Shown here one piece after another: positions 1-21,132 of a stretch of DNA of 64,000 bases. Location of the stretch: NCBI GenBank assembly GCA_020723105.1, contig DYJL01000008.1:10564-74563 (forward strand). Reading direction: 5' to 3'. The notes under the pieces are model-generated. The model had not been told where the DNA came from, ran no database searches, and saw only the letters and a program-made list of their open reading frames with translations. Numbering within the stretch: position 1 is the stretch's first letter; the number at the start of each line of letters is the position of its first letter. This DNA comes from Nitrospira japonica (GTDB taxonomy: Bacteria; Nitrospirota; Thermodesulfovibrionia; UBA6902). Position numbers and translations under genes: made by a program.

Positions 1-1
1 G

Positions 2-1270
2 GGAATAGATGTAAGCGGAAGTATGAAAGGGGTGCCAATAATGGAGGCAAAAAGATCGGCATCAATATTTCTGGATCAGCTTGATAAAAAAGATTTTGTT
101 TCAATCATGAGCTTTGGAAGTAAAGTCATGTTCCTTACCGATTTTACCGAGAAAAAACATGAAGCAAGGGCGAAAATAGAGAGTCTTATTGCCAACGAAC
201 AGTGGACATGGCTGTATCAGGCCACTTATGAAGGGCTGGATAAGGCATCCAGAGCGCCAACCTCAAGAGTTGCTGTAGTGCTTCTCACTGACGGCAAGGA
301 TGAGGGCAGCCATAGGACTGAGGAAGAGGTGGTAGCGAGAATTGGTGGAACGCAGGTGCCTGTGTATACGCTTGGTTTCGGCCAAAATGCGCAGGTGGAA
401 TATCTTAAGAGAATAGCAGGTATAAGTAGGGGATATTTTCTTTTCACTCCAAATGCAGAGGATCTCTCAAAACTATATAGCATGGTGATAGACCAACTGA
501 AAAACCAGTATTTAATCAGATTTAGTCTTACAGGCCCTGCTGGTAACTATACCAGCATCGTAAAGCTTAATTATCGGGGGAAAGTAATAACAGCTCGCAG
601 GGGTTTCATGCATTTTATTGTCGGGCCGGAACCGGGTAGAAGTTTGAATCCGAAATTATGGCTGGGAATAATAACTTTGGTTTTTGTTATTGCAGGTGCG
701 GTCTTTTTTATAGCAAATCGTAAAAAACAAGGACACAAACAACCGCAAGAGAATGGGTCAATACCTGAAGTAAGTATAATGGCAAACAAAAAGATCAATC
801 CGATCGGTTTTTTTTCGGACACCTCGAAAGATTTCACGAAAACAGTTATAACCCCTTCACAGTCAAGGGGTGAGGTGGGTTTTGAAATAGATATACCACC
901 TATTCCGTTCACATTTTCCCTTGCAGACAAAAGAAATAAGAAAGAATATAACGAGGTTATAATAACCCGATATGATAAAGATAAAGAACACTTATTTTCC
1001 AATGAGAAAGTATATCTATTATTTTCAGACAGTTCAGTGTCGCGTCCTGACGAGGGAAGAGAAGGGCATGCCAAGATCTTTGTTGATGAAAGCACACAAA
1101 CATACAAATTGGAAGATCTGGGAAGTGCCTCAGGTACCAGAATCAACAATTACGGGCTGTTAAGGAATGGGGAAGTATGGGTCCTTACAGACGGAGATAT
1201 AGTCATTGTTGGGCATACATCCTTGCAGTTTTATGATAAGAGGCAATTAACTGCTGATACAACATTTTGA
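2..1270 (+). CDS. vWA-TM-FHA protein (5' end outside window)
   Basis: Frame is open from the window edge (nt 2-22 encode GIDVSGS with no stop). GIDVSGSM matches the vWA MIDAS motif DxSxS. A single TM segment follows (LWLGIITLVFVIAGAVFFIA). The C-terminal FHA signature is GSASGTRINNYGL...GDIVIVG. Confidence 0.6.
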   Translation, partial: GIDVSGSMKGVPIMEAKRSASIFLDQLDKKDFVSIMSFGSKVMFLTDFTEKKHEARAKIESLIANEQWTWLYQATYEGLDKASRAPTSRVAVVLLTDGKDEGSHRTEEEVVARIGGTQVPVYTLGFGQNAQVEYLKRIAGISRGYFLFTPNAEDLSKLYSMVIDQLKNQYLIRFSLTGPAGNYTSIVKLNYRGKVITARRGFMHFIVGPEPGRSLNPKLWLGIITLVFVIAGAVFFIANRKKQGHKQPQENGSIPEVSIMANKKINPIGFFSDTSKDFTKTVITPSQSRGEVGFEIDIPPIPFTFSLADKRNKKEYNEVIITRYDKDKEHLFSNEKVYLLFSDSSVSRPDEGREGHAKIFVDESTQTYKLEDLGSASGTRINNYGLLRNGEVWVLTDGDIVIVGHTSLQFYDKRQLTADTTF

Positions 1271-1282
1271 GGAGACAAGCTG

Positions 1283-1921
1283 ATGAATGAAAATGATAAT
1301 AAAACAAACAGAAAATCAGGCAATATTGCTGACTGGATAAATGAACAGAAAAAACACAAGGAACAGCATGGTCGAGGAAAAGATGAAGCAGACAATATCT
1401 GGCCGCCGGAACCGGTAAAACGAAAAGTTGCTGAGAACATGAAGAATCAGAGAACTGAAACAATGCAGGTACACAGCCATGATAAAGAGGATAAAAAAAC
1501 ACCGATCAATAACAGACAAGATGTGGCAGACAATATTGGGCTGCCAACACAGATTGATGGATTACCGCAAGGTATATATGCACATTTTTTGCTGACAAAC
1601 ATATCAGGACTGGGAAGGAAAAAAGGTATACCACGTTATATGAAGCTTGAAAAGACCAAAACGCTTATAGGGAAATATGCAAGTGCCCACATAAGACTTG
1701 ATGACGAAGACACTATTGAAATCAAACATGCAAAAATTATCTTTGAAGATACTGGTGGGAAGAAAGATTTTGTTATTTACCCTATAAATAATGCCAGTTT
1801 GTCTGTAAATGGCAGCACAGTGTCAGATAGCGGCATTGTATTACACAGTGGGGATACGGTAGAAATAGGCAGTGCAGAGCTCATCTTTTTCTATAAAGAT
1901 ATTAAAAGGAACCTATCATGA
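1283..1921 (+). CDS. FHA-domain protein
   Basis: C-terminal FHA motif: GKYASAHIRLDD...SLSVNGSTVSDSGIVLHSGDTVEIG. The polar N-terminal half is low-complexity. A 12-nt gap separates it from the upstream gene, and it overlaps the downstream gene (ATGA). Confidence 0.55.
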   Translation: MNENDNKTNRKSGNIADWINEQKKHKEQHGRGKDEADNIWPPEPVKRKVAENMKNQRTETMQVHSHDKEDKKTPINNRQDVADNIGLPTQIDGLPQGIYAHFLLTNISGLGRKKGIPRYMKLEKTKTLIGKYASAHIRLDDEDTIEIKHAKIIFEDTGGKKDFVIYPINNASLSVNGSTVSDSGIVLHSGDTVEIGSAELIFFYKDIKRNLS

Positions 1922-2643
1922 AAATAGGTCGTATAAGTGACTGTGGCATTGCAAGAGAACAGAACGAAGACTCATATATTATTGACGAAGCGATAGGACT
2001 GTATTTGGTTGCTGACGGGGTAGGAGGACATCAGGCAGGTGAAATAGCCAGCAGAACAGGAGCTGAAACTATTTGCAGAACAATAAAGAATAAACTTGCT
2101 GATCAAGATGGACAGAGTATAGAGTTAATAATAAAAGAGGCTATTGACAGCGCCAATAGGGAAGTATTAAATCAGGCGACAAGTAATTCTAACTTCCACG
2201 GTATGGGTTCTACAGTGGTTTTAGGATTATACAGGAATGACAAACTCTATATTGCACACGTAGGAGACAGCCGGGCCTATTTGATCAATTCTAATGATAT
2301 TATACTTTTGACGGAAGACCATTCTATCGTTGCCAGCCTTGTAAGAGCAGGAAAGATTACAGAAAAAGAGGCAAGAAATCACAACATGCGCCACATCATT
2401 ACACAGTGCCTGGGCAGTCAGGAATATTTTGGTCCTGAAATAAAAATTATTGATTTTAAAAAGGATGATACCCTCCTGTTATGCTCAGACGGGCTTACCG
2501 ATATGGTTGAAGATAGTAAGATTAAAAAGACTGTGCTCAAAAAAAGGAAAGACCTGCAGGATTGTGCCTGGGAATTAGTGAGATTAGCCAACAAGAACGG
2601 CGGACTGGATAATATAACCATTATTTTGGCAGAAAAAAATTAA
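1918..2643 (+). CDS. PP2C-family Ser/Thr protein phosphatase
   Basis: PP2C motifs are present: LYLVADGVGGHQAGEIAS, GMGSTVVLGLY, HVGDSRAYL and LLLCSDGLTDMV. Confidence 0.8.
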   Translation: MKIGRISDCGIAREQNEDSYIIDEAIGLYLVADGVGGHQAGEIASRTGAETICRTIKNKLADQDGQSIELIIKEAIDSANREVLNQATSNSNFHGMGSTVVLGLYRNDKLYIAHVGDSRAYLINSNDIILLTEDHSIVASLVRAGKITEKEARNHNMRHIITQCLGSQEYFGPEIKIIDFKKDDTLLLCSDGLTDMVEDSKIKKTVLKKRKDLQDCAWELVRLANKNGGLDNITIILAEKN

Positions 2644-2655
2644 AGAAATTAAGAA

Positions 2656-3606
2656 ATGTATGGAGGATTCTATATGAATTTTAAAAAGATAAAATTGGAT
2701 TTTGAAAACACTTTTGTGGTGTTTGCTACGGGTGCATTATTAACAGGGTTGATATTCCTGATCTTATACTTTCTACCCAACACTGTTTATTTGCGTATCT
2801 TCTTTTACAGAAGCTGGTATGTACAGTCAATAACAACATGGCTTTTCTGCACAGCAGTCCTATTTGTGATATTTAAATATATGCGTCTTAAGGTAGAAAG
2901 AAGTATCCTTGACAATAAGGTAATTATAGAACGGCTCGACTCCATTACTCTTCAGCACGCAAGAGATGTATTGGAGAAAATACCTGAAAAATACAGGGAT
3001 ACCATCAGTTTCAGACGTATAAGTGAGCTTTTGAGGGGATATATACATAGAGAAGAGGTGGTAAGACTCAATCAGGAACTTTCAAGGAGGGATGTAGAAC
3101 AGATAGAAGGAGGGCATCTTGTTTTAAACTCACTGAAACAGCTTGTCCCGGTACTTGGTTTTCTCGGGACCGTCATTGGTTTATCTTTGGGAATGGTAAA
3201 TTTTTCTGATGTATCCGAAACCGTCGGCAACATAGAAAGTTTGAGGGTTAAATTAAAAGACCTTGCTGCATCCCTCAGCGTTGCCTTTGATACGACACTG
3301 TTAGGACTTGGTTATACGATCGTGCTTGTATTGATTTCATCATTATTAAGACGCAAAGAGGAGTCTTTTATTGCTGATGTAGATAACAAGTCCAGGGCGC
3401 TGATCACGAAATTAAGATATTTTTCAGATGCAGCGGAAAGGTCAGAAGGCAGTCACGATGGTGGTTATGGCAAGGAAATTGTAAATGCTCTCCGTCAGAA
3501 TGGAGACGCCATTTTGAAAAAGTTGGATGAGTTGAAGGACGGCTTACAAAAACCGCCTCACTACGAAATTATTGTTCAGCCTGTAAAAGGAAAAGATGTT
3601 GAATAA
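2656..3606 (+). CDS. MotA/TolQ/ExbB-family proton channel protein
   Basis: There are 2 N-terminal TMs and a cytoplasmic loop. The family-typical motif VPVLGFLGTVIGL sits in TM3, and TM4 has A..L..T..GL..I spacing (LAASLSVAFDTTLLGLGYTIVL). Confidence 0.65.
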   Translation: MYGGFYMNFKKIKLDFENTFVVFATGALLTGLIFLILYFLPNTVYLRIFFYRSWYVQSITTWLFCTAVLFVIFKYMRLKVERSILDNKVIIERLDSITLQHARDVLEKIPEKYRDTISFRRISELLRGYIHREEVVRLNQELSRRDVEQIEGGHLVLNSLKQLVPVLGFLGTVIGLSLGMVNFSDVSETVGNIESLRVKLKDLAASLSVAFDTTLLGLGYTIVLVLISSLLRRKEESFIADVDNKSRALITKLRYFSDAAERSEGSHDGGYGKEIVNALRQNGDAILKKLDELKDGLQKPPHYEIIVQPVKGKDVE

Positions 3607-4546
3607 GAAAGGAAGCATAGAGATACTCATGCTGCTGGGCTGTCTGGTCGGGGTTATTGTCTTTCTGAGCTTTGCAATGGGGGTTTTAAGTCTTGCTTCT
3701 AAAATAGAAAAGGATAATATTCCGGACCATTCCAGATTATTGGAGAAACGGAAGAATTTACTGGAAGAAAAAAAGAAGAAAGAAGAAGATGTTGCGAATC
3801 TTACAAAAGAGAGCGGAGAATTAAGAAATAAAATATCGGAAAAAGAGAAGGATTTTGAAAAAATAAAATTGCCTGAAAAAGAGCAGGAGAAAAAAGAGGA
3901 ATTGATCAGTCTTAAGAAACGGCTCGATGAATTACTTAGACTGATAAAGACTAAACAGGATGAGCTTGAAAAAATCAAACAGGAGTTGGCCGGATTAGAA
4001 GAATATGGAAAAAAAGAAGAAGACCTTAAGAAATTAAGAGAAGAACTGGAGGCATTAAAAAGGAAAAAGAAAGATAAAGAAGAAGAAATAGCAAAAACAT
4101 CTTTTTATAAAAATAATGCAATGATAAAGGAAATAGAAGAACTCAGGAAGGCGATTAAAGAAGCTGAAGAAAAAATGAAAGAGCTGAAAAATAAACTAAA
4201 GGAGGGAAATGATCCCGTATTGGAGGGCATCAGAGGAAGCCTTTCTATAAAAAATCCCCTTTTTGTTGAATGTAAGAATAATATGATTATATTGCACCCG
4301 GATAAAAAAGCCCTGACTGTTTCTGACCTGGGGAAGAACAATACTTTTTCGAATATTAATGTTACGCATAGAGGTATCGTGTTTTTCATAAGGCCGGATG
4401 GTTTTGATACTTTCAACGAAAGTTTTGGACTTGCACAAAAAATAGCAGATAAATCTAATTTGGACCTTGCTTATGAGCCTATTGATTCAGATTATGATCT
4501 TGATTCTTTAATCGAAAAACTGGGGAAAAGAAATGAAAAGAGATGA
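3596..4546 (+). CDS. TolR/ExbD-like single-TM protein with long K/E-rich coiled-coil stalk
   Basis: N-terminal TM (IEILMLLGCLVGVIVFLSFA) is followed by ~190 aa of heptad-like K/E/L repeats. The C-terminal domain (NPLFVECKNNMIILHPDKK...GIVFFIRPDGFDTFNESFGLAQKIADKSNLDL) resembles the ExbD/TolR periplasmic fold pattern. It overlaps the upstream gene by 11 nt. Confidence 0.45.
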   Translation: MLNKKGSIEILMLLGCLVGVIVFLSFAMGVLSLASKIEKDNIPDHSRLLEKRKNLLEEKKKKEEDVANLTKESGELRNKISEKEKDFEKIKLPEKEQEKKEELISLKKRLDELLRLIKTKQDELEKIKQELAGLEEYGKKEEDLKKLREELEALKRKKKDKEEEIAKTSFYKNNAMIKEIEELRKAIKEAEEKMKELKNKLKEGNDPVLEGIRGSLSIKNPLFVECKNNMIILHPDKKALTVSDLGKNNTFSNINVTHRGIVFFIRPDGFDTFNESFGLAQKIADKSNLDLAYEPIDSDYDLDSLIEKLGKRNEKR

Positions 4547-5606
4547 TTTTTCTTTTCTCAAGCTTTTTGAAGACCCGCTTATGACAATCATTGCCATTGT
4601 ACTGTTCAGCACGGTCTGGATGATACTACCCAAAGAGACAAAGCCCGTTGACGCTAAGGTGTATCTTACCCTTGATGAACTTGAAACTCTGAAGAGAGAG
4701 ATTGATTCGCTCGATAAAACAATAAAAAAACTGAAAATGGAAATTAAGCGGCGGAACGAAGAGATCAAATGGATTGAGAGCAGGATAGAAGAAACTGTAA
4801 ATGAGAAAATCAAAGACGTCCAGGGAAAAAATACAGAGCAGTTAAAGAACGAAGCTGCAGCGACAATAGACAGGATCAAGAAAGAAAAAGAGGAACTCAA
4901 CCGCCTGGAAGAGGAATTGGAAAAAGCAAAAATGAAGCTGGCTCAAATTAAAGGTAAAGATAATAGTGAACTTATCATAGAAACAATAAGAATGAAAAAA
5001 GAAATTGAAAAAATTAAAGAAGATATCGGCCTGTTGGAAGAGAGAATAAGACTGGCTTTAAAAGACCTGAAAAAAGAAAAAGACAATAAGAATACCCAGG
5101 AGAATTTGATTGCTCAACTGCAAAATGAATTAAAGACAAAACAGACTGAAGTTGGGCAACTTGAAGAACAGGTAAAAGGAATAGGGACAGGAGGAGGATT
5201 TAAACCAATTGTTAAATCTGAGAAAAACCCTTTCTTTATAGAACTGGTAAACAATCATTTGTTTCCCGTAGATGATGTCCATTATGAAGCTGAATATGGT
5301 TATATAAAAATCAAGGATGGCAGAACAGTGCAGGCATCCAAAAAAATCCGAAAGTCTTCCAGCGGTGAACATATCAGCAAAATTGAGAATTCTGAAAGCA
5401 ACTTCAATAACATATTGAAAAAACTTGATGTTAGTAAAGAACGTATTATCTTCTTAGTCCATAATAATTCTTTTGAGATCTTCAGAAAAGCGAGGGCGAT
5501 AGCTTTAAAAAAGGGGATCGAAACAGGCTGGTGGACACGCGAAGGTGATTCAATAATAATCACTTATGGCGGAGGCGGGACAGACATAGGCTCCTACAAA
5601 GAATGA
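4533..5606 (+). CDS. TolR/ExbD-like single-TM protein with long coiled-coil stalk (paralogue of 3596-4546)
   Basis: N-terminal TM has an acidic residue at its start (FEDPLMTIIAIVLFSTVWMIL), like the conserved Asp of ExbD/TolR. About 200 aa of K/E-rich coiled coil follow. The C-terminal domain (NPFFIELVNNHLFPVDD...ERIIFLVHNNSFEIFRKARAIALKKGIETGW) resembles the ExbD/TolR domain. It overlaps the upstream gene by 14 nt. Confidence 0.5.
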   Translation: MKRDDFSFLKLFEDPLMTIIAIVLFSTVWMILPKETKPVDAKVYLTLDELETLKREIDSLDKTIKKLKMEIKRRNEEIKWIESRIEETVNEKIKDVQGKNTEQLKNEAAATIDRIKKEKEELNRLEEELEKAKMKLAQIKGKDNSELIIETIRMKKEIEKIKEDIGLLEERIRLALKDLKKEKDNKNTQENLIAQLQNELKTKQTEVGQLEEQVKGIGTGGGFKPIVKSEKNPFFIELVNNHLFPVDDVHYEAEYGYIKIKDGRTVQASKKIRKSSSGEHISKIENSESNFNNILKKLDVSKERIIFLVHNNSFEIFRKARAIALKKGIETGWWTREGDSIIITYGGGGTDIGSYKE

Positions 5607-5690
5607 AAATAACTAACAGAGAGCAAGATAAAATACTTTTTCAGGAGAATTAGTCAGTAACAATTTTAATTGGAACAGGAGGGAACAAAA

Positions 5691-7079
5691 ATGAAATTAC
5701 ATCAAATCAAAAAAACAGTTTTCAGAAGCAGTATGCTGGTTTTACTGTTTCTTGTTGCTTTATTTATATTCAACCTTAAAATCTCAAACGCTCAATCCAC
5801 CCTGATAGTAAGTAAAGAAGTTGAGGGCGCAGTCCTTGCTGAAGACTGGGCAAAGGTTGCGAAATTGCTTGATGACGTGAAGGCAGAAACACCCGAACCG
5901 GTACTTCGACTGATCAAAGGACATGCTGATCTGGCATTGAACAGGAACAATGAGTCTTTATGTATGTTCATAAGCGTGGCTTCATCAGATAACGATCTTC
6001 AGGAGTGGGACAAGTGGACACGGGATTTTGCGGGAAGAAATCCAAAAAGCATAATTGCGTATTACTTCAGAGGAGATGCACTGGCAAGAATAAAGAAATG
6101 GGATGAGGCATTGACGGCATTTAACAAGGCTCTGGAACTTAATCCAAAACATGCGATGGTTTTGAATGCGAGAGGGGTTGTGTATGCGGCGAAGAGGGAT
6201 CTGACCCTTGCACGTAATGATTTCGATAATGCTATCAGCATCAACCAGTCTTTCGCAGATGCCTATGCAAATCTCGGTTCAAGATTTATACAGATGAAAG
6301 ACGGAGCGGAAGGAGCGATAAATGAATTTGATAAAGCGCTGAGGATTTCGCCAGGGTTCGCGCTTGCTCTCCATGGAAAGGGGAACGTGGAAGTAATTCT
6401 TTTTCAAATAGAGGAAGCAGAAAAAAATCTTAATAAGGCAAAGGAATATGGGACGTGCGGTAAGGAACTCTTTAATGAAAACATTATTAACATTGCAGCT
6501 TATGTTCATGGAGTGGATAAAAAGGAATTGATTGCAATGATTCCAAAAGATGGAGATGGAATAGGGATGTCATTAAAGAGAACATTTGAAAATCCTGTAG
6601 GTTCATCCGGGTTAAAGCAATTTGAGAATTCATTAAAGAATTTTGAGCGTTTTGGGGGTAAGCCTGGAGTTGGACAGTGGAGTTTTAATAGAGTTGGTGA
6701 AAGTTTCTATCATTTATCTCCTACTGAGAAAATTACAGCCAATAAAATGGTGGATAACTTCCTGGATAAGAATCCAAATTTAAGCAGGCATTTCTATGAA
6801 GGCGCAAAAGATTTCGCACATAATCCTATCAGAAGCTTTGGATACGAAGTAAAAGGGAAAATTGGTGGAACAATGGGTGGGATGGAAGCAGGAGTGAAAA
6901 TTCCCGCCTCTACTTCTGATCAAGCATATAGAGACATCGGCAAGGGGTTCCAAGATAAGGCTATGAATCGTATGAGTAATCTTCCGGAAGGCGTCCTTGC
7001 AAGCCTTGCCGATGCAAATTGGGATGAGGGTCAATGGCCGTTTGTAGAGTACTATGGCCTTATTTACAGCATGAAGTAA
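5691..7079 (+). CDS. Secreted TPR-repeat protein
   Basis: AGGAGGG lies 8 nt upstream of the ATG at 5691, so the longer 5670 start is disfavoured. A signal peptide is present (LVLLFLVALFIFNLKISNAQS). At least 5 TPR-like 34-aa units are visible (AYYFRGDALARIKKWDEALTAFNKALELNP, AMVLNARGVVYAAKRDLTLARNDFDNAISIN and others). Confidence 0.6.
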   Translation: MKLHQIKKTVFRSSMLVLLFLVALFIFNLKISNAQSTLIVSKEVEGAVLAEDWAKVAKLLDDVKAETPEPVLRLIKGHADLALNRNNESLCMFISVASSDNDLQEWDKWTRDFAGRNPKSIIAYYFRGDALARIKKWDEALTAFNKALELNPKHAMVLNARGVVYAAKRDLTLARNDFDNAISINQSFADAYANLGSRFIQMKDGAEGAINEFDKALRISPGFALALHGKGNVEVILFQIEEAEKNLNKAKEYGTCGKELFNENIINIAAYVHGVDKKELIAMIPKDGDGIGMSLKRTFENPVGSSGLKQFENSLKNFERFGGKPGVGQWSFNRVGESFYHLSPTEKITANKMVDNFLDKNPNLSRHFYEGAKDFAHNPIRSFGYEVKGKIGGTMGGMEAGVKIPASTSDQAYRDIGKGFQDKAMNRMSNLPEGVLASLADANWDEGQWPFVEYYGLIYSMK

Positions 7080-7104
7080 TAAATGTTTAATGCGGGGTAT
7101 TGGA

Positions 7105-10100
7105 ATGAAAACAGCTAAATCGAAAACATTGCTTTTTACATTTATTTCCGTCCTGTTTCTCTCTTGCATTGCATATGCGGACCAATTTATTGCCTTTTCC
7201 CTCAATAAAGCAGAAATGGAAATGAGAGAATCAGGACGTTCCCATAAAAACAGGTTATTCGAACTTGGAGGAATAACCCGGCCTGTTGGAATTGTATATG
7301 ATGCCAACCGCAGTGATTTGATTGTAGTTGGGCAGATAAATGAGAAAGAACAAAAAATATCTCTTGATGATTTTGTAGTTGCCTTGAGAGCGATTTCAGT
7401 GTACAAGGAATCTCCGTTGGTGAGCATTGACAGATCTGATGAGACTGAAACAACCAAAAGGCAAAGAGTGCGCTTTGAGGGGGGGATAGAAAATACTAAA
7501 TTCGGAAAAGACTTGCTTGAGGCGGATATCATTCTGAAAAAAATGGGAGTCGGGGAGCTGCGGACCGATATTTGGGGTGTTAAATCCTATGTCGATATGT
7601 CGGCGGAGTATTGGAATAAGACGGGGATTGAGGATTCAGTTTCCAGCCGATTCTGGTTTAAACCTTCAAAAGAAAAATCTTTTGTTGGCGTTCGCGATGG
7701 CGTAGTCATCGTAAAAAAATTAGTAATTGATGTAAAAACGGAAGTTATGGGAGCAATTAATTCACACCGACCTGTGGATGACCGAGCAGGAAGTTATGAT
7801 GAGATCGGAGATAGATTTGCCAGTGCAGTGGCAGCAAATATTGATGATATTGATTCATATTATTCTGAGGTAAAAAGGTTAGACCCTCTTTTTCGATTGG
7901 TTGGTCTGGCTGAGGGTATCAAAAGAGAGGCTTTCAACTTCAAACCTGATATAAATTTCTGGTTGAATGAATATAGAGTAGAACATATAGAAACGCTAAA
8001 GGATTATCCACTGTTAGTGAAAGAAAAGAGACTGGAAAAAAATGGGGAAAACCGTCAAATGACAATTAATGGCGGCATAGAATTAAGACCACTTCTTGTA
8101 GATCTTAATGCTGGTGTTGTAACAGCATTAAGAGATATTGTTATTAAATCCAGACCTGAAGGGAATCCGTTAATATGGAAATTGCCGCTTGAAGGATGGC
8201 AACTACCTGAGGATTCAAAAATAGATATTACTGCATTCGGTAAAAAGTTAAGAGATTCAACTGCGGGGGTAAACGGTATGAGCTTAACTAAGCGGATTTC
8301 CCCTGTTGATTCTCCCGGAAATCAGAAAATAAATTATAAATCATCTCCCCTGTCCGACGGGGGCTCAAACTTCAATTTTACAGATAGATTTTCTCCTCAG
8401 AAATACTCCCCTCACGTCGGCGGAGTTATGCTCCAGGGTGTAGCAAAGGTTTCAGGCGGGGAACAGGCGAAGGTTGATCTCACAAGCGGAAATTTTTCTT
8501 TGATCGTGGGCGGGCAGAATGCGCGGCTTGCACCCGAGGCATACAGAAAATTCATAACAGCGCTATGGTCTGTATATTACAGTCAGAAAGACCCCGGTAT
8601 TTCCATCGATCCGATCGGATGTTTTTATTTTGATCCCTATGACCCTGAAAGGGACAAAAAATTTGCGGAATGCCTGAAACGCTATGAGAAAAAGGAAGAG
8701 AAGCACATGGTCCGCTACATCGGCAAAGTGATCAACACGGACCTTGGGAGAGTCATGCGGGAGGCGGACTACGTGATGAAAAAGTGGTCGGTCGGAACAG
8801 AGAAGCCTGGTATTTCAGGATTCAAAAGCCCGGATGAATACAGGGGCTGGAAAACTACTGATAGCGAAGGATCGAGCCGCTTCTGGTTTGTCCCTGAAGA
8901 TATGAAGTTCAAACGTGGCGGTGACATGCTCCTTTTTGAGGACGGCAGGATGACAGTAAAAACAGAGTATATGTTTAAAAATGATGAAGGTGCACAGGCA
9001 GATCCGTACAACGAAAAGTTTGCCGGGTTCTTTACCGAACACTATGGAGAAATTGCCAATAAATATCCTGTCTATCAGGAACTTTTTGAATATGCGAAAA
9101 TGGTGAGCCTGGCCAAATATCTCAAAGAGCAGGGTCTTCCCATGTTCTGGTTCCTGATGGCTAACAAGGATCTGGTCATTACCGAGGATTCTCCCGGTAC
9201 TGTGGAAGCGCTGGCAAAGGGATCGGATTATTATAAAAACTTATATATAATGGGCGGAGTAGACCTTGGCTTTGATGCCAGACGCGAAGGCAATTATGTG
9301 TATGACCGTGAGGCAGTAAGGGCCATAAATGAAGCTGTTTCCAAGCTCCCTTTAAATGCTTATTCAAAAACCACACTATCTGCAGGGGACATAACTCCTG
9401 CGAGTTCAGAGCCGTTCTCCTTTAACCTTGGAAAGGACAGCTTCACTGTTGTCCCGCAACATTCGCTTACATCAGGCAAGGACAGACATGGGATCAGATA
9501 CCAGACAGACATAGCTTTAAGAGGGACAGGCTTACAACTGACCGGACGGGCGCTTGAGACTATAAAGAACAAAATTATTAGGTGGATGATGGTACAGGAA
9601 CTGAATCCGATATTACGGACTAAAGATACCACTAAATTATCTGAAGCTGAAATTGAAGCCCTTAATAAGAGAATTACAGAAGAAACAGAAAAAGCTAAAA
9701 CGAAAGCAGGAAAGATCATTGAAAAGATGGAGAGTTTAAAAAATATTAAATATACAGATGAAAATAAATTTGTAAAAGCTCTTGAAGAAACCATAGGCCG
9801 GGAAAAAACAGATATTTTTAAGAGAATGGTTATGGAATTTGCCTATTACAACACTAATCTGGACCTCGTACGCTATTTTAAACCGGGACAACAGGACATC
9901 GGAGAGTTCGGTAAAGGCTGGCATTTATTGATACCCTATCGTCTTAAACCCGCAGGCGATGCCAAAAGAAAATTCCTTAATGTGTTGATTCCGGAGAAGA
10001 TGGCTGTAGAAAACCAGCTTACCGGGGATCAAGAGGTGCTCACATTCAGTACAGACCGTTATACAGTTGCAGGTTATGTGCCTGCAAAACTTGAGTCGAG

Positions 10101-10812
10101 TCAGGTGGTGGGACTATTCATGATGTCTGATGCCTCATATCGTCTTGCGGACAAGTTGGGTAATGAGTTTTGGTTTGACCGGGCAGGTTATCTTACCGAC
10201 ATGATCTTTTCTGAGGACCATCATATTCATGTTGAATATGCTGACAGTTTTACTGACGCTTTTGAAGAAATCCCTTATCAGATCCAGCCTGCAGGTAAAG
10301 AGCAAACGGCATTTCTTAATGTCTTCATACCAAGAAAAATGACTGTTAAGAACCTCATCAGTGGAGATAGCGAGATCCTGACCTTCAGTGAAGAAGGCGA
10401 ATTTGCTGGATATGTTCCTGAAAATGCGGAAAAGAGCAGCTATAAAATATTAGCGCTAATGTCAGATGCATCTTTCCATCTGCTTGATAAGAATGGGAAT
10501 GAGACGTCATTCAGTTCCTTGCGGACTTTTGATGGAAAATTTAAAGAGATGGCTTTTTCTTCTGATCGCAGAATGGTGAGATCCGTGTCACAGGGCAATC
10601 AAAAGATCGGTTTTAAATATTCTATAGACAGATCAGGAGAAGTTATGATAGCCAGCGCCAATCTCTCGGAAGGCGAAGAAACAAAACTGAGTTATATAGT
10701 GAAATATAAATATGATAAGGAAGGCAGGCTCTATAGTGTAACTGGGACGGGGAATACAATAGCTAAAACTCAACATCAAAATAATGAAATGCTGATGCAT
10801 GTGAAAAAATAG
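7105..10812 (+). CDS. Large secreted protein (1236 aa), unknown function, internal tandem repeats
   Basis: Signal peptide MKTAKSKTLLFTFISVLFLSCIAYA precedes DQF. An ~100-aa tandem repeat starts at PAGDAKRKFLNVLIPEKM... and repeats at PAGKEQTAFLNVFIPRKM.... A second repeated motif is SSRFWFKPSKEK / SSRFWFVPEDMK. I recognise no known catalytic motif. Confidence 0.7.
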   Translation: MKTAKSKTLLFTFISVLFLSCIAYADQFIAFSLNKAEMEMRESGRSHKNRLFELGGITRPVGIVYDANRSDLIVVGQINEKEQKISLDDFVVALRAISVYKESPLVSIDRSDETETTKRQRVRFEGGIENTKFGKDLLEADIILKKMGVGELRTDIWGVKSYVDMSAEYWNKTGIEDSVSSRFWFKPSKEKSFVGVRDGVVIVKKLVIDVKTEVMGAINSHRPVDDRAGSYDEIGDRFASAVAANIDDIDSYYSEVKRLDPLFRLVGLAEGIKREAFNFKPDINFWLNEYRVEHIETLKDYPLLVKEKRLEKNGENRQMTINGGIELRPLLVDLNAGVVTALRDIVIKSRPEGNPLIWKLPLEGWQLPEDSKIDITAFGKKLRDSTAGVNGMSLTKRISPVDSPGNQKINYKSSPLSDGGSNFNFTDRFSPQKYSPHVGGVMLQGVAKVSGGEQAKVDLTSGNFSLIVGGQNARLAPEAYRKFITALWSVYYSQKDPGISIDPIGCFYFDPYDPERDKKFAECLKRYEKKEEKHMVRYIGKVINTDLGRVMREADYVMKKWSVGTEKPGISGFKSPDEYRGWKTTDSEGSSRFWFVPEDMKFKRGGDMLLFEDGRMTVKTEYMFKNDEGAQADPYNEKFAGFFTEHYGEIANKYPVYQELFEYAKMVSLAKYLKEQGLPMFWFLMANKDLVITEDSPGTVEALAKGSDYYKNLYIMGGVDLGFDARREGNYVYDREAVRAINEAVSKLPLNAYSKTTLSAGDITPASSEPFSFNLGKDSFTVVPQHSLTSGKDRHGIRYQTDIALRGTGLQLTGRALETIKNKIIRWMMVQELNPILRTKDTTKLSEAEIEALNKRITEETEKAKTKAGKIIEKMESLKNIKYTDENKFVKALEETIGREKTDIFKRMVMEFAYYNTNLDLVRYFKPGQQDIGEFGKGWHLLIPYRLKPAGDAKRKFLNVLIPEKMAVENQLTGDQEVLTFSTDRYTVAGYVPAKLESSQVVGLFMMSDASYRLADKLGNEFWFDRAGYLTDMIFSEDHHIHVEYADSFTDAFEEIPYQIQPAGKEQTAFLNVFIPRKMTVKNLISGDSEILTFSEEGEFAGYVPENAEKSSYKILALMSDASFHLLDKNGNETSFSSLRTFDGKFKEMAFSSDRRMVRSVSQGNQKIGFKYSIDRSGEVMIASANLSEGEETKLSYIVKYKYDKEGRLYSVTGTGNTIAKTQHQNNEMLMHVKK

Positions 10813-11863: not shown

Positions 11864-14557
11864 TTGAAAAACATAATTTTAAATATCAACGGCAGAAGTA
11901 TTCAGACTGTTGAAGGCCGAACAGTCCTGAAGGCTGCGAGAGAAAACGGGATCTACATCCCTACCCTTTGTTACCATCCCCGTACAAAACAGGCCGGCAA
12001 GTGCAGAATATGTGTTGTAGAAGTTGAAGGTTTGCCTGGTTTGAGAATATCCTGTTCGCTCGAAGCAAAAGAGAACATGGTCGTGCTTACAAATACAGAG
12101 CGCGTCCTTGAAACCAGAAAGATGATTGTTGAGTTGTATCTGTCAAGCGGCAAACACAACTGTATTTCATGTGAAGCAAACGGCCGTTGTGAACTGCAGG
12201 AAGTTACATACCGTCTTGGCATAGAGAAGTCCACCTTCCCTGTATTGACTAAAGATTATCCGCCTGATACATCCAGCCCGATGATAATCAGGGACCTGAA
12301 TAAGTGCATTCAGTGTTACCGGTGCATTGCCGGATGCAATAATATCGCAGTTAATGAAGTCCTCGATATGGGGTTTCGGGGCAGCAATATGACTGTAGTC
12401 TGCGATACAAACAAGCCGATGGGAAAATCTTCATGCGTGATTTGCGGCGAATGCGTTCAGCTCTGTCCGACAGGCGCGCTGACAGAGAAAAAGGCCTTTG
12501 GCAAGGGAAGGCCCTGGGAGATAAAAAAAATCAAGACCACATGCCCCTACTGCGGTGTCGGCTGTCAGGTTCATCTGCATGTCAAGGATAATGAGATTGT
12601 GAAAGTGACTGGTGTGGAGGAGGTTGCTCCCAATTACGGCAGCTTATGCATAAAGGGAAGGTTCGGATACGATTTTGTTCATTCTCCTGAAAGATTGAAA
12701 ATGCCGCTTTTAAGAAAGAATGGTAAATTTGTTGAAGTCAGTTGGGATGAGGCGCTCGATTTTACTGCAAGCAGGCTCCTTGAAATTAAAAAGGCCCGGG
12801 GGCCGGAATCTATTGTCGGCATCGGCTGCGCAAGGACTACGAATGAGAACAACTATGTTATGATGAAATTCATGCGTGCGGCAGTTGGCACCAACAACGT
12901 AGACCACTGTGCGCGCACCTGACACGCTCCAACTGTAGCCGGTCTGGCTGCAACTCTGGGTGCAGGCGCAATGTCCAATTCCATCAGGGAGATTGAGAAC
13001 AGCCCGGTCCTGTTTGTAATTGGTTCAAATACAACAGAAGCACATCCGGTTATTGCCAACAGTATGAAGAGGGCCGTCAAGAAGGGCAGCATCCTTATTG
13101 TTGCAGATCCGAGAAAAATTCCCCTTACGCGCTGGGCCACAAAACATTATCAGCATAAGGTAGGTTCAGACATTGCCTTGCTGAATTCAGTGATGCATGA
13201 GATTATAAAAAACGGCTGGCACAACAAAGAATTCATCAGCAGCTATACCGAAGGATTTGATGAATTACAAAAGGTCGTCAGCGCTTATCCACCGGAACGC
13301 GCTTCAGAGATATGCGGAGTTTCAGAGGATGGAATCAGAGAACTTGCAATGCTGCTCGGCACGGCTGAGAGAGTTGCGCTTTATTACACACTCGGAATTA
13401 CCGAACACGTTACAGGGACAGACAACGTCAAAACCTGTGCAAACCTGCAAATGCTTCTCGGCAATATCGGCAAGGAATATACCGGCGTTAATCCATTAAG
13501 GGGGCAGAACAATGTTCAGGGAGCCTGTGACATGGGAGTGCTTCCGGATGTGTTTACAGGATATCAGAAGGTGGCTGATGAAACGGTCCGGGAGAAGTTT
13601 GCAACTGCATGGGGTATTAATTCTTTGCCTGAAACCGCAGGCACAAAAATACCGGCCATGTTTGACGGAATGCTTCACGGCGACATTAAGGCGCTCTATC
13701 TTGTTGGTGAAAATGTAGTGATGTCAGAACCCCATCAGGCGCATACAATCAGGGCGCTTGAAAAACTCGAGCTTCTCATTGTGCAGGATATTTTTTTCAA
13801 TGAGACTGCGCAATATGCGCATGTGGTTTTACCGGCTGCGTGCTTTGCCGAGACAGAAGGGACCGTCACCAATACTGAGAGGCGGGTTCAGCGCGTCAGA
13901 AAGGCCGTGGAACCGCCAGGACAGGCTAAGGAAGACTGGTGGATTATCAGTGAGCTTGCAAGAAGGATGGGCTACCTTATGGACTACACGTCAACAGAGC
14001 AGATATGGGAGGAAGTTCGCAAATTAACGCCAAACATTTCCGGTATTACATTTGAAAGGATCGAGCGAGAGGGCCTTCAATGGCCCTGTCCGGATATTAA
14101 TCATGCCGGTACATGTTATCTTTACTGTGACAATATATTTCCCTGCGGCAAGGCCAGGTTTCAACCTGCACAGTGGAAACCGCCGGCAGAGGTTCCTGAC
14201 AGGGAATATCCGTTTGTGCTTACAACAGGCAGAAGGCTCTGGCATTATCACACAGGGACCCAGATACGAAAATCTGCAGGATTTGATGATGTCTTCCCTG
14301 AGGAACTTATCGAGGTAAACAAGGAAGATGCCGGAAGTCTGGGTATAAAAAATGGCGATTATATCCGCGTTGTCTCACGCAGAGGAATGCTGAGAGTAAA
14401 GGCCTGGGTTACGGACCACGTTTCACCAGGCTTGTGCTTTATGACCTTTCACTTTCATGAGGCCTGTGCAAACGCTCTGACGAACAATGCCTTTGACCCG
14501 TTTGCAGGCACTGCCGAATATAAGGCATGTGCAGTGAGGCTGGAGAAAGAGGGATAG
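11864..14557 (+). CDS. fdhA: Formate dehydrogenase alpha subunit, selenocysteine-containing (NAD-type with N-terminal 2Fe-2S/4Fe-4S NuoG-like domain)
   Basis: TTG start. The N-terminus has a 2Fe-2S ferredoxin and 4Fe-4S motifs (CIQCYRCIAGC, CVICGECVQLCP). Context VDHCART-TGA-HAPTVAGLAATLGAGAMSNS places the TGA at 12920-12922 at the conserved Sec position of FdhA/FdhF. The downstream ORF (12971-14557) is in the same frame. A SECIS-like hairpin lies 13 nt after the UGA. Confidence 0.85.
12935..12951 (+). other. SECIS-like hairpin downstream of fdhA UGA
   Basis: GUAGCC-GGUCU-GGCUGC forms a 6-bp stem (including one G-U pair) with a GGUCU apical loop, like the E. coli fdhF SECIS apical loop. Confidence 0.55.
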
Positions 14558-15315: not shown

Positions 15316-16203
15316 CTACCCCCTTTTTCTTCTTATCCCCATAATTATTCCAGCCTCTATCCCCAGTGTGCCTATGAAAGCAAGCACCGGATAAAAATAT
15401 ATAGTCTCTTTCTCCTCTGTCTCAAGGGCAACATAGTACCATGTAGAGACAACCTTTCTACCGCCCCTGTCACCTTCAGAGCCATTCCATACTGCAAGAG
15501 AAAGTGGGGTGACGCTGCCTTCCCTGAAAACAACGTCGAATTTATCCTGAGATGTCAGGGGCCGCTTAAACACAACAAACCATTTCCCGGACTGCCATTT
15601 TCCGTTACCGCTGATGTTTTGGATATCAGCCTTTTCCAGATCAGTTGCGTTTCCAAAGCCCTGAGCGATTATATTTTCAACAGGTGAAATTCTCGCTCTT
15701 GATACAGGATTGCCGACCTCAAGGCCTCCGGCAAATTCATCTGATGTTGCATAGGTACTATGCATGTCATTTGCATTTTGCCATGAAGCTTTCCAGAACC
15801 AGATATTTACAGGATTGTCTTTGTCGCCCATTGCAAAATGCGGTTTGGATGCAGCAGCAGATGAGGGAAATTCCAATGCCACGGCATCAGAGAACTTATC
15901 TACATCTAATGACGAATCTTCTGAGGCATCACTCCACTCAAGCAGAAAGGCCATTTCTTTTGTGTTGTGCAGGGCCCGGACCTTTAAATTTTTTACAGAA
16001 GATTCATAGGTCCTCGGTTTTGCCATAACCTGTGGAGCGAGGGGAATTTCAATGGCAGATGCATTGTTCCAGGCGCTGTTATCAGCTTCAAGGGGCAGAT
16101 CACCCGATACCTTCTTTGCCATGACAACAAGACCCTGGGAATAGGCATCAAAAGACAGGAGGAAAAAACAGAGAAGAGCGAAAATAGTTATCATTGCGAG
16201 CAT
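15316..16203 (-). CDS. Gamma subunit of type II DMSO-reductase-family enzyme (EbdC/NxrC-like, haem b), membrane-anchored
   Basis: A start at MLAMITIFALLCFFLLSFDAYSQG gives a signal peptide. The longer ORF extending to 16431 consists of REP repeats. The EB_dh-like domain and a C-terminal TM helix (FYPVLAFIGTLGIEAGIIMGI) are present. It is adjacent to the beta subunit. Confidence 0.65.
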   Translation of the reverse strand: MLAMITIFALLCFFLLSFDAYSQGLVVMAKKVSGDLPLEADNSAWNNASAIEIPLAPQVMAKPRTYESSVKNLKVRALHNTKEMAFLLEWSDASEDSSLDVDKFSDAVALEFPSSAAASKPHFAMGDKDNPVNIWFWKASWQNANDMHSTYATSDEFAGGLEVGNPVSRARISPVENIIAQGFGNATDLEKADIQNISGNGKWQSGKWFVVFKRPLTSQDKFDVVFREGSVTPLSLAVWNGSEGDRGGRKVVSTWYYVALETEEKETIYFYPVLAFIGTLGIEAGIIMGIRRKRG

Positions 16204-16210
16204 AGTGTGC

Positions 16211-16301
16211 TGTCCGTAACAGTTCTTTACACTGTCATTGCGAGGGACGAAGTCCCGAAGCAATCTCACTACGAGATTCCTCGCTTCGCTCGGAATGACA
16301 A
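16211..16301. repeat. REP/MITE-like palindromic element, family A (inverted pair of GTCATTGCGAG...GAAGCAATCTC units)
   Basis: The sequence is CTGTCCGTAACAGTTCTTTACAC-TGTCATTGCGAGGGACGAAGTCCCGAAGCAATCTC-ACTAC-GAGATTCCTCGCTTCGCTCGGAATGACA. It lies in the beta-gamma intergenic spacer. Confidence 0.65.
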
Positions 16302-16345
16302 AGCTGTAAAGATATTTAGCTGACAGGACAATAGGAAAGCAATCT

Positions 16346-16396
16346 TTCTTTTGACTACGAGATTGCTTCACACCCTTTGGGTGTTCGCAATGACAT
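16346..16396. repeat. REP family A single unit (reverse orientation)
   Basis: GAGATTGCTTCACACCCTTTGGGTGTTCGCAATGACA has an internal palindrome CACCC(T/A)AAGGGTG. Confidence 0.55.
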
Positions 16397-16440
16397 CTGA
16401 ACTTGTCTTCATAAATTTGAAATTTTCTCATTATCCCCTC

Positions 16441-20600: not shown

Positions 20601-21132
20601 GTCCGTATGCCTCTTCGTATGGCAGTTTAAGCCACTTGTCTTTTCCTCTCTGGAAAAATTTCACATGCGGTTTCCCTGTCTCAGGGTCCCTCGGGAAGCC
20701 CTCCTTAGCCCAGTCGTAAAAACCCTTTCTCACCATGGCGCCCTTGACCCTTCTGTCTCCATAAAATTTCCTTGCAAGTGCCAGTCCCTTCTGGCAGCAC
20801 CTCGGCTCCCATCTGTGAGTCGGCATATTTCCGTAAGGATCTACAGTTTTTCCATATCCATAAGTAGGCATGATTCTCATAATGACGCCATTCTTTACAT
20901 AAGCCCGTAAAAGACAATTATGTGTGTCATTCGGGGCGCAGGTAAAGACAAAGGTATCATCATATTTGAATTTATCCCGGTATAGTTTTTCCCACTCCCG
21001 ATCCGGATATTCTCCCATCGGATTGTCAATACTCACGGGCTGAAGGAATGCAAGCCTTGGAGAGTTTACTGCCAAACCTGCTGCGCCTGCCAGAGACCAT
21101 TTTAAAAAATCCCTCCTGCTGAAGCTTTTCAT
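17689..21132 (-). CDS. Molybdopterin alpha subunit, type II DMSO reductase family (NarG/NxrA-like), TAT-exported
   Basis: 1147 aa. Twin-arginine signal [17 protein letters not shown] is present. An N-terminal Cys/His cluster ([11 protein letters not shown]...CC) fits an FS0-type site. Size and architecture match NarG/NxrA/EbdA-type enzymes. It is followed by the NarH-like beta subunit. Confidence 0.85.

Follow-up and report, generated by a model that had tools for sequence, protein, structure and literature searches.

The stretch of DNA analysed here, referred to as the window, comprises 64,000 nucleotides from Nitrospira japonica (contig DYJL01000008.1 of assembly GCA_020723105.1). The subject of this work is a large gene on its forward strand, here named BIG, whose product is predicted to be exported. 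BIG follows a row of genes for a MotA/TolQ/ExbB-family channel protein, two single-pass membrane proteins with coiled coils (CC1 and CC2) and a tetratricopeptide repeat (TPR) protein, and the link between these genes may point to an undescribed, energy-driven module of the cell envelope.

The BIG reading frame (7105-10812) is uninterrupted and encodes 1235 amino acids followed by a stop codon; the sequence-only reading from which this study departs had delimited the frame correctly but had counted the stop as a 1236th residue. The public protein P0001 is 100% identical to BIG over its 1235 amino acids and begins at 7105. An in-frame ATG at 7090 would lengthen the protein by 5 amino acids, and a GGGG tetranucleotide is located 9-12 nucleotides 5' of the start at 7105. 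The N-terminus is composed of the basic stretch MKTAKSK, the hydrophobic core LLFTFISVLFLSCIAYA (Kyte-Doolittle 1.85) and a predicted cleavage site between AYA and DQ. An equivalent signal-type N-terminus was found in every full-length homologue, followed by the conserved mature start xFxAFSLxEA, and the signal region contains no conserved lipobox cysteine. This pattern, together with its recurrence throughout the full-length homologues, bears out the signal peptide that had been read at this gene, and judged by its sequence BIG is exported.

BLAST self-comparison and hhalign alignment of family profiles revealed two internal repeat families, as had been suspected. The tandem duplication of about 100 amino acids near the C-terminus (residues 943-1041 and 1056-1157) shows 48% identity over 100 amino acids with an E value of 2.6e-24 in the self-comparison, and a probability of 99.9% (E 2e-37) at the profile level. 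The second duplication is N-terminal and was detected between residues 73-275 and 466-676 by BLAST (E 1e-10) and between residues 75-325 and 468-719 by profile alignment (228 columns, probability 99.7%, E 2e-25). The motif SSRFWF, present twice (residues 181-186 and 591-596), had been taken for the repeated unit in this part of the protein; the repeat is real, and the motif is merely the most visible piece of a duplicated domain of about 230-250 amino acids. Both duplications were found in 119 of the 119 homologues examined and are therefore ancient and not due to chance. An AlphaFold2 model of residues 26-1225 (109 aligned sequences) had a mean predicted local distance difference test score (pLDDT) of 81.5 and a predicted template modelling score of 0.76, and the final ~300 residues are all-beta in this model, with pLDDT values above 90. 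The features of BIG are as follows.

7105..10812, + strand: BIG gene, predicted exported protein of 1235 amino acids, stop codon included in the coordinates (open reading frame translation; public match P0001)
7105..7179, + strand: Sec-type signal peptide, residues 1-25, cleavage predicted between AYA and DQ (sequence reading and hydropathy scan; homologues alike)
7180..8079, + strand: N1, first copy of the duplicated alpha/beta domain, residues 26-325, homologous core 75-325 (BLAST, hhalign; AlphaFold2 pLDDT mostly 80-95)
8080..8490, + strand: linker or mid1, residues 326-462, partly of low confidence (segments with pLDDT below 50)
8491..9342, + strand: N2, second copy of the duplicated domain, residues 463-746, homologous core 468-719 (BLAST, hhalign, family alignment)
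9415..9534, + strand: beta segment, residues 771-810, counterpart of the stretch that matches DUF6531 in homologues P0155 and P0107 (Pfam matches of homologues; model strands E746-785)
9544..9843, + strand: helical insertion of four helices, residues 814-913 (per-segment BLAST; AlphaFold2 model)
9931..10227, + strand: R1, first beta repeat of about 100 amino acids, residues 943-1041
10270..10575, + strand: R2, second beta repeat of about 100 amino acids, residues 1056-1157 (self-BLAST, hhalign)
10705..10731, + strand: canonical YD-repeat motif YKYDKEGRL, residues 1201-1209, in the C-terminal beta tail (motif scan)

BIG is thus composed of a signal peptide and two alpha/beta domains of about 250 amino acids each that have no recognisable fold; these are followed by a segment resembling DUF6531 and by Rhs/YD-type beta-hairpins, which form an open strip and include the tandem repeat of about 100 amino acids. 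N1 holds the first SSRFWF motif, and the second is part of N2, which is far better conserved than N1 and is characterized by the invariant motifs GISIDP, KHxVRYIGxVINTDLGRVMREADYxMKKW and NKDLVxTEDSPGTV. Among its invariant residues are D502 of GISIDP and D546, R552, D555, Y556 and K559 of NTDLGRVMREADYxMKK. The linker is a site at which extra domains are inserted in some homologues, such as the insert of about 300 amino acids in P0012 and P0021. The helical insertion is present in family members of about 1200 amino acids, and members of about 1100 amino acids lack some 110 amino acids at this place. A GxGW motif, GKGW in BIG (residues 936-939), is located just ahead of R1, and both tyrosines and the leucine of the YD motif are invariant in our alignment A1.

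Scans of the entire protein and of three sub-fragments against Pfam, NCBIfam and PADLOC returned nothing above threshold, in agreement with the earlier statement that BIG has no recognisable catalytic motif, and N2 matched neither a known catalytic motif nor a family of Pfam or NCBIfam, nor did it match a solved fold. The only family match was to DUF1598 (PF07643) at residues 119-162, within N1, which aligned with the C-terminal half of the model at 23.0 bits (E 9e-5) against a gathering cut-off of 25. Precomputed PF07643 matches are listed for about 25 homologues, and the Pfam model spans just 84 residues of the N domain of ~250 amino acids. DUF1598 is the sole sequence family that touches the N-terminal domain, from which it differs by its score below cut-off, its short model and the lack of an attached function or paper, a literature search having found no article that mentions it; judged by sequence, the N domain of BIG is probably a distant DUF1598 relative and not a certified member. 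Sequence searches of the PDB with BIG alone and with a profile of 109 sequences yielded no match. The only recognisable part of BIG is a short Rhs/YD-like sheet, devoid of Rhs-toxin features. A match to a well-characterised family that occurs independently of the motor genes had been named as a result that would sever BIG from these genes, and BIG was found to match no such family.

Of the family to which BIG belongs, 186 proteins including the identical P0001 were found (185 further proteins at E ≤ 1e-3 in a collection of 5.8 billion), and every homologue named by its source is annotated as 'hypothetical protein'. When 1.84 billion cluster representatives were searched with the N2 profile, 178 clusters were found at E ≤ 1e-30 and 2423 at E ≤ 1e-3. 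The segment order N1, linker, N2, mid region, R1, R2 and tail was the same in all 119 retrieved homologues according to per-segment BLAST. Across the variants, N2, the mid region, R1, R2 and the tail form an invariant core and the N-terminal part varies, being N1 in proteins of the window type and another extension of 550-1000 amino acids elsewhere. Between phyla, N2 has a mean column identity of 63% and shows 57-80% identity, with 66 invariant columns that include D, K, H, N, R, E, Y and S. Among the 115 full-length homologues, GxGW is present in 113 and YxYDxxGRL in 74. One variant, P0175 (1520 amino acids), combines an N2/Rhs-like core with a marginal match to the class-3 lipase family PF01764 at residues 83-165 (23.1 bits, cut-off 22).

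Scanning a single genome for each GTDB species identified 39 loci of the BIG family, all of them in metagenome-assembled genomes. They are distributed over Bacteroidota, Planctomycetota (Pirellulales, Brocadiia and Phycisphaerae), LCP-89, Desulfobacterota, Acidobacteriota, Ignavibacteria, Nitrospirota, Binatia, Verrucomicrobia and Beta- and Gammaproteobacteria (Accumulibacter, Lamprocystis, Immundisolibacter and Arenicellales). No homologue was found in the plasmid and phage collections searched. A family fragment on a 1.7-kb contig (L033) belongs to a metagenome-assembled genome labelled as a Thermococcaceae archaeon; as the contig is so short and the family is bacterial in all other cases, this label looks like a binning artefact.

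A homologue of the TPR protein is encoded directly upstream of the BIG homologue in 29 loci, so that the TPR protein, to which the sequence-only reading had given no special place, is the closest and most constant partner of BIG. A MotA_ExbB gene was found at a distance of 10 kb or less in 27 of the 32 loci with enough flanking sequence, corresponding to at least 12 phyla, and the co-occurrence of BIG with MotA-like genes, a check suggested earlier for other genomes, is a property of most informative loci. Genes of the CC1 and CC2 type are usually located between the MotA_ExbB gene and BIG, and their order often matches that of the window. Domains are also shared between the partners. In L025 (3370-6318), an N1-type domain is fused to the TPR protein, and a domain of about 270 amino acids starting with '..VTFYVTDFGI..' forms the N-terminus (first ~300 amino acids) of the TPR protein of L001 (7217-9967), is inserted into the linker of the BIG homologues P0012 and P0021 (residues ~385-670) and forms the N-terminus of P0129, P0155, P0139, P0193 and others. 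Such domain exchange between the TPR partner and the BIG family represents classical fusion evidence for a functional or physical link. BIG is genetically coupled to the TPR protein, to a MotA-family channel and to a pair of coiled-coil proteins with acidic membrane helices.

In the window, the genes upstream of BIG are tightly packed on the same strand, and BIG starts 25 nucleotides past the end of the TPR gene. A gene for an NAD-epimerase follows 94 nucleotides downstream of BIG; as this gene adjoins a BIG homologue in none of the other loci, BIG is the last conserved member of the row, which agrees with its earlier description as the terminal gene of an operon. No Rfam family was found within the window. 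The genes preceding BIG are the following.

1..1270, + strand: protein with a vWA domain, a membrane helix and an FHA domain, 5' end cut by the start of the window (domain scan)
1283..1921, + strand: cytoplasmic FHA-domain protein, accessory (domain scan)
1918..2643, + strand: PP2C Ser/Thr phosphatase, accessory regulator present in some loci only (domain scan)
2656..3606, + strand: MotA/TolQ/ExbB-family channel protein, 316 amino acids, four hydrophobic segments (PF01618, hydropathy)
3596..4546, + strand: CC1, protein with one membrane pass, a coiled coil and FxIRPDGF in its C-terminal domain (sequence, alignment, hydropathy)
4533..5606, + strand: CC2, protein with one membrane pass, a coiled coil and, at its C-terminus, an alpha/beta domain (sequence, alignment, hydropathy)
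5670..7079, + strand: TPR protein with signal peptide, 469 amino acids, constant upstream partner (domain scan; gene order)

The channel protein matches PF01618 at 45.6 bits (cut-off 22.9). It contains Thr172 in LGFLGTVIGL and Thr213/214 in FDTTLLGLG, located in the last two membrane helices, which probably correspond to the functional threonines of TolQ and ExbB. Partial ZorA matches of 18-28 bits were obtained over the channel core, along with weak matches to ExbB and TolQ; the NCBIfam cut-offs are 100-500. CC1 and CC2 are paralogous (hhalign E 2e-22) and have a common C-terminal alpha/beta domain, and the length of their coiled coil varies with the lineage between nearly nil and about 200 residues. 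The membrane helix of CC2 starts with an aspartate (FEDPLMTIIAIVLF), which occupies this position in 15 of 16 aligned sequences (alignment A4, by eye). That of CC1 starts with a glutamate in the window (SIEILMLLGCLVG), and about half of the aligned members have Glu or Asp there; distant CC1 members read 'PF[IL]D[VI]L' (e.g. 'PFIDVL') there, and 'LLDTMTN' also occurs among distant members of the two proteins. The TPR protein has the conserved C-terminal motif G-x-W-P-F-x3-[YF]-G-L-x-[YF], which has the form GQWPFVEYYGLIY in the window (nucleotides 7029-7067). Its homologues in L002, L022 and L031 have a cysteine directly after the signal sequence (e.g. LSALAC, LSAGC, LLQAC), suggesting from sequence that the TPR protein may be lipidated in a few loci; no cysteine follows the signal sequence of the window protein.

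The phospho-signalling genes are accessory. Those for vWA-FHA, FHA and PP2C proteins recur in L008 and L030, and in L001 a kinase gene precedes the MotA gene. The open reading frame listed for the vWA-FHA protein begins at the ATG at position 23, whereas the frame is open from nucleotide 2, and the metal ion-dependent adhesion site motif D-V-S-G-S of its vWA domain (IDVSGSM) is encoded at nucleotides 8-22. In L008, the homologue is longer by ~100 residues at its N-terminus, a signal peptide among them, and the vWA domain is therefore placed in the periplasm and the FHA domain, beyond the membrane helix, in the cytoplasm. In L045, a 570-kb metagenome contig, a MotA_ExbB protein (2998-4317) carries a fused N-terminal FHA domain (Yop-YscD_cpl/FHA), which joins a phospho-peptide reader directly to the channel, and genes for a PP2C phosphatase and a LysM protein are located downstream of the BIG homologue. 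L007 (Brocadiaceae) contains an extra N1-like coding stretch (2234-3277) between the CC2 and TPR genes.

In 5:2 motors such as MotAB, ExbBD and TolQR, the aspartate in the membrane helix of the B subunit is essential and faces conserved threonines of the A pentamer. Against this background, we consider it slightly the better supposition that BIG is an exported periplasmic end-component or partner of an undescribed, Tol/Ton-like proton-driven envelope module, and we hold with the same narrow preference that this module is made up of the MotA/TolQ/ExbB-type channel, CC1, CC2, the signal-peptide TPR protein and BIG. By analogy with the known motors, a MotA-like pentamer with a CC1/CC2 heterodimer as its inner B part would form a 5:2 proton-driven motor. 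The coiled coils of CC1 and CC2 would carry their C-terminal domains across the periplasm, where these domains may act on a TPR/BIG complex, much like TolQRA with TolB/Pal or ExbBD-TonB with receptor plugs. In the window lineage and a few others, the motor might additionally be under Ser/Thr-phosphorylation control via the sensor with periplasmic vWA and cytoplasmic FHA domains, the FHA protein and the PP2C phosphatase. The sequence-only reading had seen in BIG either a cargo or a periplasm-spanning partner of stator-like proteins; conserved gene order speaks for the proposed link of BIG to the MotA-like genes, but the periplasm-spanning appearance belongs to CC1 and CC2 and not to BIG. It had also called the neighbouring genes ExbD-like. 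Homology to ExbD was not found, whereas an acidic residue in the membrane helix of proteins encoded beside a channel gene fits such a role, and because homology to TolR or ExbD is undetectable, CC1 and CC2 are assigned as B subunits on the grounds of architecture and adjacency.

Several observations weigh against the reading of BIG as part of such a module. CC1 and CC2 gave no match to Pfam ExbD (PF02472) or to MotB/OmpA-type families at E ≤ 10, their hhalign probability with Escherichia coli TolR is 3%, and their profile search of the PDB returned coiled-coil matches only. BIG has no relation to TolB by hhalign, the N2 profile scoring a non-significant probability of 0.2% with E. coli TolB, and the module showed no component of the outer membrane and none that binds peptidoglycan. 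No MotA gene was detected near BIG in L023, L034, L035, L042 and L044 despite long flanks. The location of BIG is deduced from its predicted signal peptide, a Sec signal being the only targeting signal in the protein, and its contact with the TPR protein is one that we infer. That N2 is so highly conserved suggests a specific chemistry which a structural explanation does not cover, and all carriers are uncultured organisms represented by metagenome-assembled genomes.

The same body of data may be read in other ways. The channel protein finds its best named profile matches, albeit weak ones (26-28 bits), among ZorA subfamilies, the PP2C protein matches the PADLOC candidate PDC-M21C, and the sporadic phyletic spread of the family at 40-60% identity suggests horizontal transfer. 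Neighbours typical of conflict islands occur at several loci: L002 contains ParDE, an integrase, RadC and ankyrin proteins, and TPR-CHAT (L047), WD40 (L035 and L046), kinase-FGE-sulfatase (L001) and transposase genes (L044 and L046) were found elsewhere. The genes could accordingly encode an envelope-surveillance or conflict system, in which the periplasmic TPR and BIG proteins and the vWA domain sense damage or an invader and the motor, with FHA, PP2C or kinase proteins, relays the signal inward in a Zorya-like manner, though with periplasmic coiled coils. We regard this as unlikely, although it is the most serious of the alternatives. The module has neither a peptidoglycan-binding protein of the ZorB type nor a nuclease or helicase of the ZorC/D type nor any conserved cytoplasmic effector, the channel protein with its 316 amino acids does not possess the long ZorA tail, PADLOC matches of BIG, TPR, CC1 and CC2 do not exceed coiled-coil noise, and homologues are absent from the phage and plasmid collections. 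The conservation of N2, with its polar residues among 66 invariant columns, and the fact that N2 and the C-terminal region form the invariant core while the N-terminal parts vary would also suit an enzyme of the periplasm whose catalytic domain is N2 and whose substrate is a polymer or lipid of the envelope, the TPR protein and motor serving to position or activate it. The variant P0175 with its N-terminal class-3 lipase domain (23.1 bits, cut-off 22) points in the same direction, but this match is marginal and confined to a single variant, N2 matched no catalytic motif, family or solved fold, and its conservation is equally explicable by an interface with multiple partners. A catalytic BIG appears somewhat less probable still than a surveillance system; it is compatible with BIG being part of a proton-driven envelope module.

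That the C-terminal region of BIG is predicted to adopt the beta-hairpin sheet fold of YD proteins, that homologues match DUF6531 and that YD and GxGW motifs are present would be expected of an Rhs-type polymorphic toxin or secreted cargo exported with the help of the motor. This possibility is largely refuted, and we give it very little weight. Rhs/YD proteins such as the Tc toxin TcB-TcC, the type VI secretion effectors RhsA/RhsP/Tse5, the N-terminal domain of SpvB and the teneurins form a closed cage, in contrast to the open strip of BIG. The YD-type sheet of BIG follows two copies of a domain unrelated to it and has about 400 amino acids, far fewer than the repeat region of Rhs and Tc cages of known structure, the chains of which have 1000-2100 amino acids. 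BIG neither encapsulates a toxin nor ends in a variable toxin domain, its C-terminus being conserved family-wide, and the aspartyl autoproteolysis motif DPxG[LWF] is absent from BIG and from 114 of 115 homologues. The hidden Markov models of Pfam RHS_repeat and the NCBIfam/TIGR YD repeat do not match the C-terminal 320-496 amino acids even at E ≤ 10, where YKYDKEGRL and GKGW occur as single motifs only. Furthermore, neither PAAR, VgrG, type VI secretion or TcA genes nor a downstream small gene resembling an immunity gene were present in the window or in L001, L002 and L044-L047, and BIG as an Rhs toxin was rejected on motif, length and context. Finally, its large size, signal peptide, repeats and beta-rich C-terminus might make BIG an adhesin or surface-layer protein whose adjacency to the motor genes is coincidental. 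This explanation, which is disfavoured and the least probable of all, is difficult to reconcile with motor adjacency in 27 of 32 informative loci from different phyla, often with gene order kept; Pfam scans also revealed no C-terminal domain of the type IX secretion system, PEP-CTERM, LPXTG or autotransporter barrel, and BIG contains just two repeats of each type, unlike the arrays of adhesins.

Returning to the reading of BIG as part of a proton-driven envelope module, a parallel in operon logic is Tol-Pal (TolQ-TolR-TolA-TolB-Pal-CpoB), which likewise joins a channel and single-pass proteins with long helices in the periplasm to a TPR protein and a large, beta-rich protein of that compartment. 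The two differ in that BIG is not detectably homologous to TolB nor CC1/CC2 to TolR, and Tol-Pal is near-universal whereas the BIG module is patchy and accessory; a domain scan of the window operon revealed no peptidoglycan binder of the Pal/OmpA type. The Agl-Glt gliding machinery of Myxococcus employs one TolQ/MotA-like channel (AglR), two TolR-like partners (AglQ and AglS), TPR proteins and large periplasmic proteins. The BIG module is similar in having one channel with two partners, a TPR protein and a large periplasmic protein; no Glt homologues or Agl-Glt outer-membrane components were detected in it. FHA is mentioned in a paper on structural models of Agl-Glt (PMC11761067). The Zorya ZorAB complex shares with the BIG module a MotA-family channel, represented here by weak ZorA matches, and long coiled coils, but the coiled coil of the BIG module is on the single-pass partners and not on the channel, and there are no ZorB, ZorC and ZorD equivalents: apart from partial ZorA matches, none of the 8 operon proteins matched a Zor component in PADLOC.

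Another link is that to the new TolQ-like motors described for PVC (Planctomycetes-Verrucomicrobia-Chlamydiae) bacteria, Proteobacteria and Bacteroidetes, which, according to section 8 of the article that reports them (PMC12204202), possess heterologous pairs of TolR-like or vWA 'transpore-helix' proteins and a TPR gene; further such trans-envelope systems are stated there to await discovery. Like the BIG module, they comprise a TolQ-like gene, a heterologous single-pass pair with acidic helices and an uncharacterised TPR gene. In those motors the force-transducing C-terminal domains are of the vWA type, whereas CC1 and CC2 have an alpha/beta domain behind a coiled coil, and the vWA protein of the window is of the opposite topology (signal peptide, vWA, helix, FHA). 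That section mentions no BIG-like protein. MotA and ExbB are unmentioned in the study of vWA/FHA conflict systems by Kaur et al. 2020 (PMC7159879), and the module is undescribed in a paper on the evolution of MotAB (PMC12505986).

Two further loci of the window are reported here in their own right. A gene for a formate dehydrogenase of the alpha type with 2Fe-2S, 4Fe-4S and molybdopterin domains (11864-14557, + strand) is listed as two open reading frames; the frame is a single one, broken by TGA at 12920-12922 within HCART*HAPT, a classical selenocysteine site, and from its sequence the enzyme is probably a selenoprotein. A protein with a haem-binding domain of the ethylbenzene-dehydrogenase type (PF09459, E 2e-34) is encoded at 15316-16431 on the - strand, near large genes (17689-21132) and unrelated to BIG.

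Ion-driven 5:2 motors, including MotAB, ExbBD, TolQR, GldLM and ZorAB, are emerging as a general means of delivering energy from the inner membrane to the periplasm, the outer membrane or the cytoplasm, and each newly understood output of such motors has revealed new biology. The motor principle is already known; what appears to be undescribed is the BIG family with its N domain, along with the module of five genes. In our estimation it falls a little short of an even chance that the channel, CC1/CC2, the TPR protein and BIG represent a new class of proton-driven trans-envelope machine. The new-fold domain N2, borne by an open Rhs-like sheet, would be its working end, Ser/Thr phosphorylation would regulate it, and horizontal transfer would have carried it to uncultured members of many bacterial phyla. 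If true, this would be a distinct 5:2-motor output beside those of Tol-Pal, Ton, Agl-Glt, GldLM and Zorya, to which the BIG family would contribute a TPR protein and a protein of about 1200 amino acids whose best-conserved domain has no known fold. It would also mean that the Rhs/YD sheet is used outside the context of toxin cages and that in some lineages such a motor is coupled directly to FHA/PP2C phospho-signalling, including an FHA-MotA fusion. The module is carried by uncultured groups of environmental importance, among them anammox-related Brocadiia, Accumulibacter, Desulfobacterota, Acidobacteriota and Planctomycetota, and the family would provide an annotation handle for more than 170 protein clusters that are labelled 'hypothetical'.

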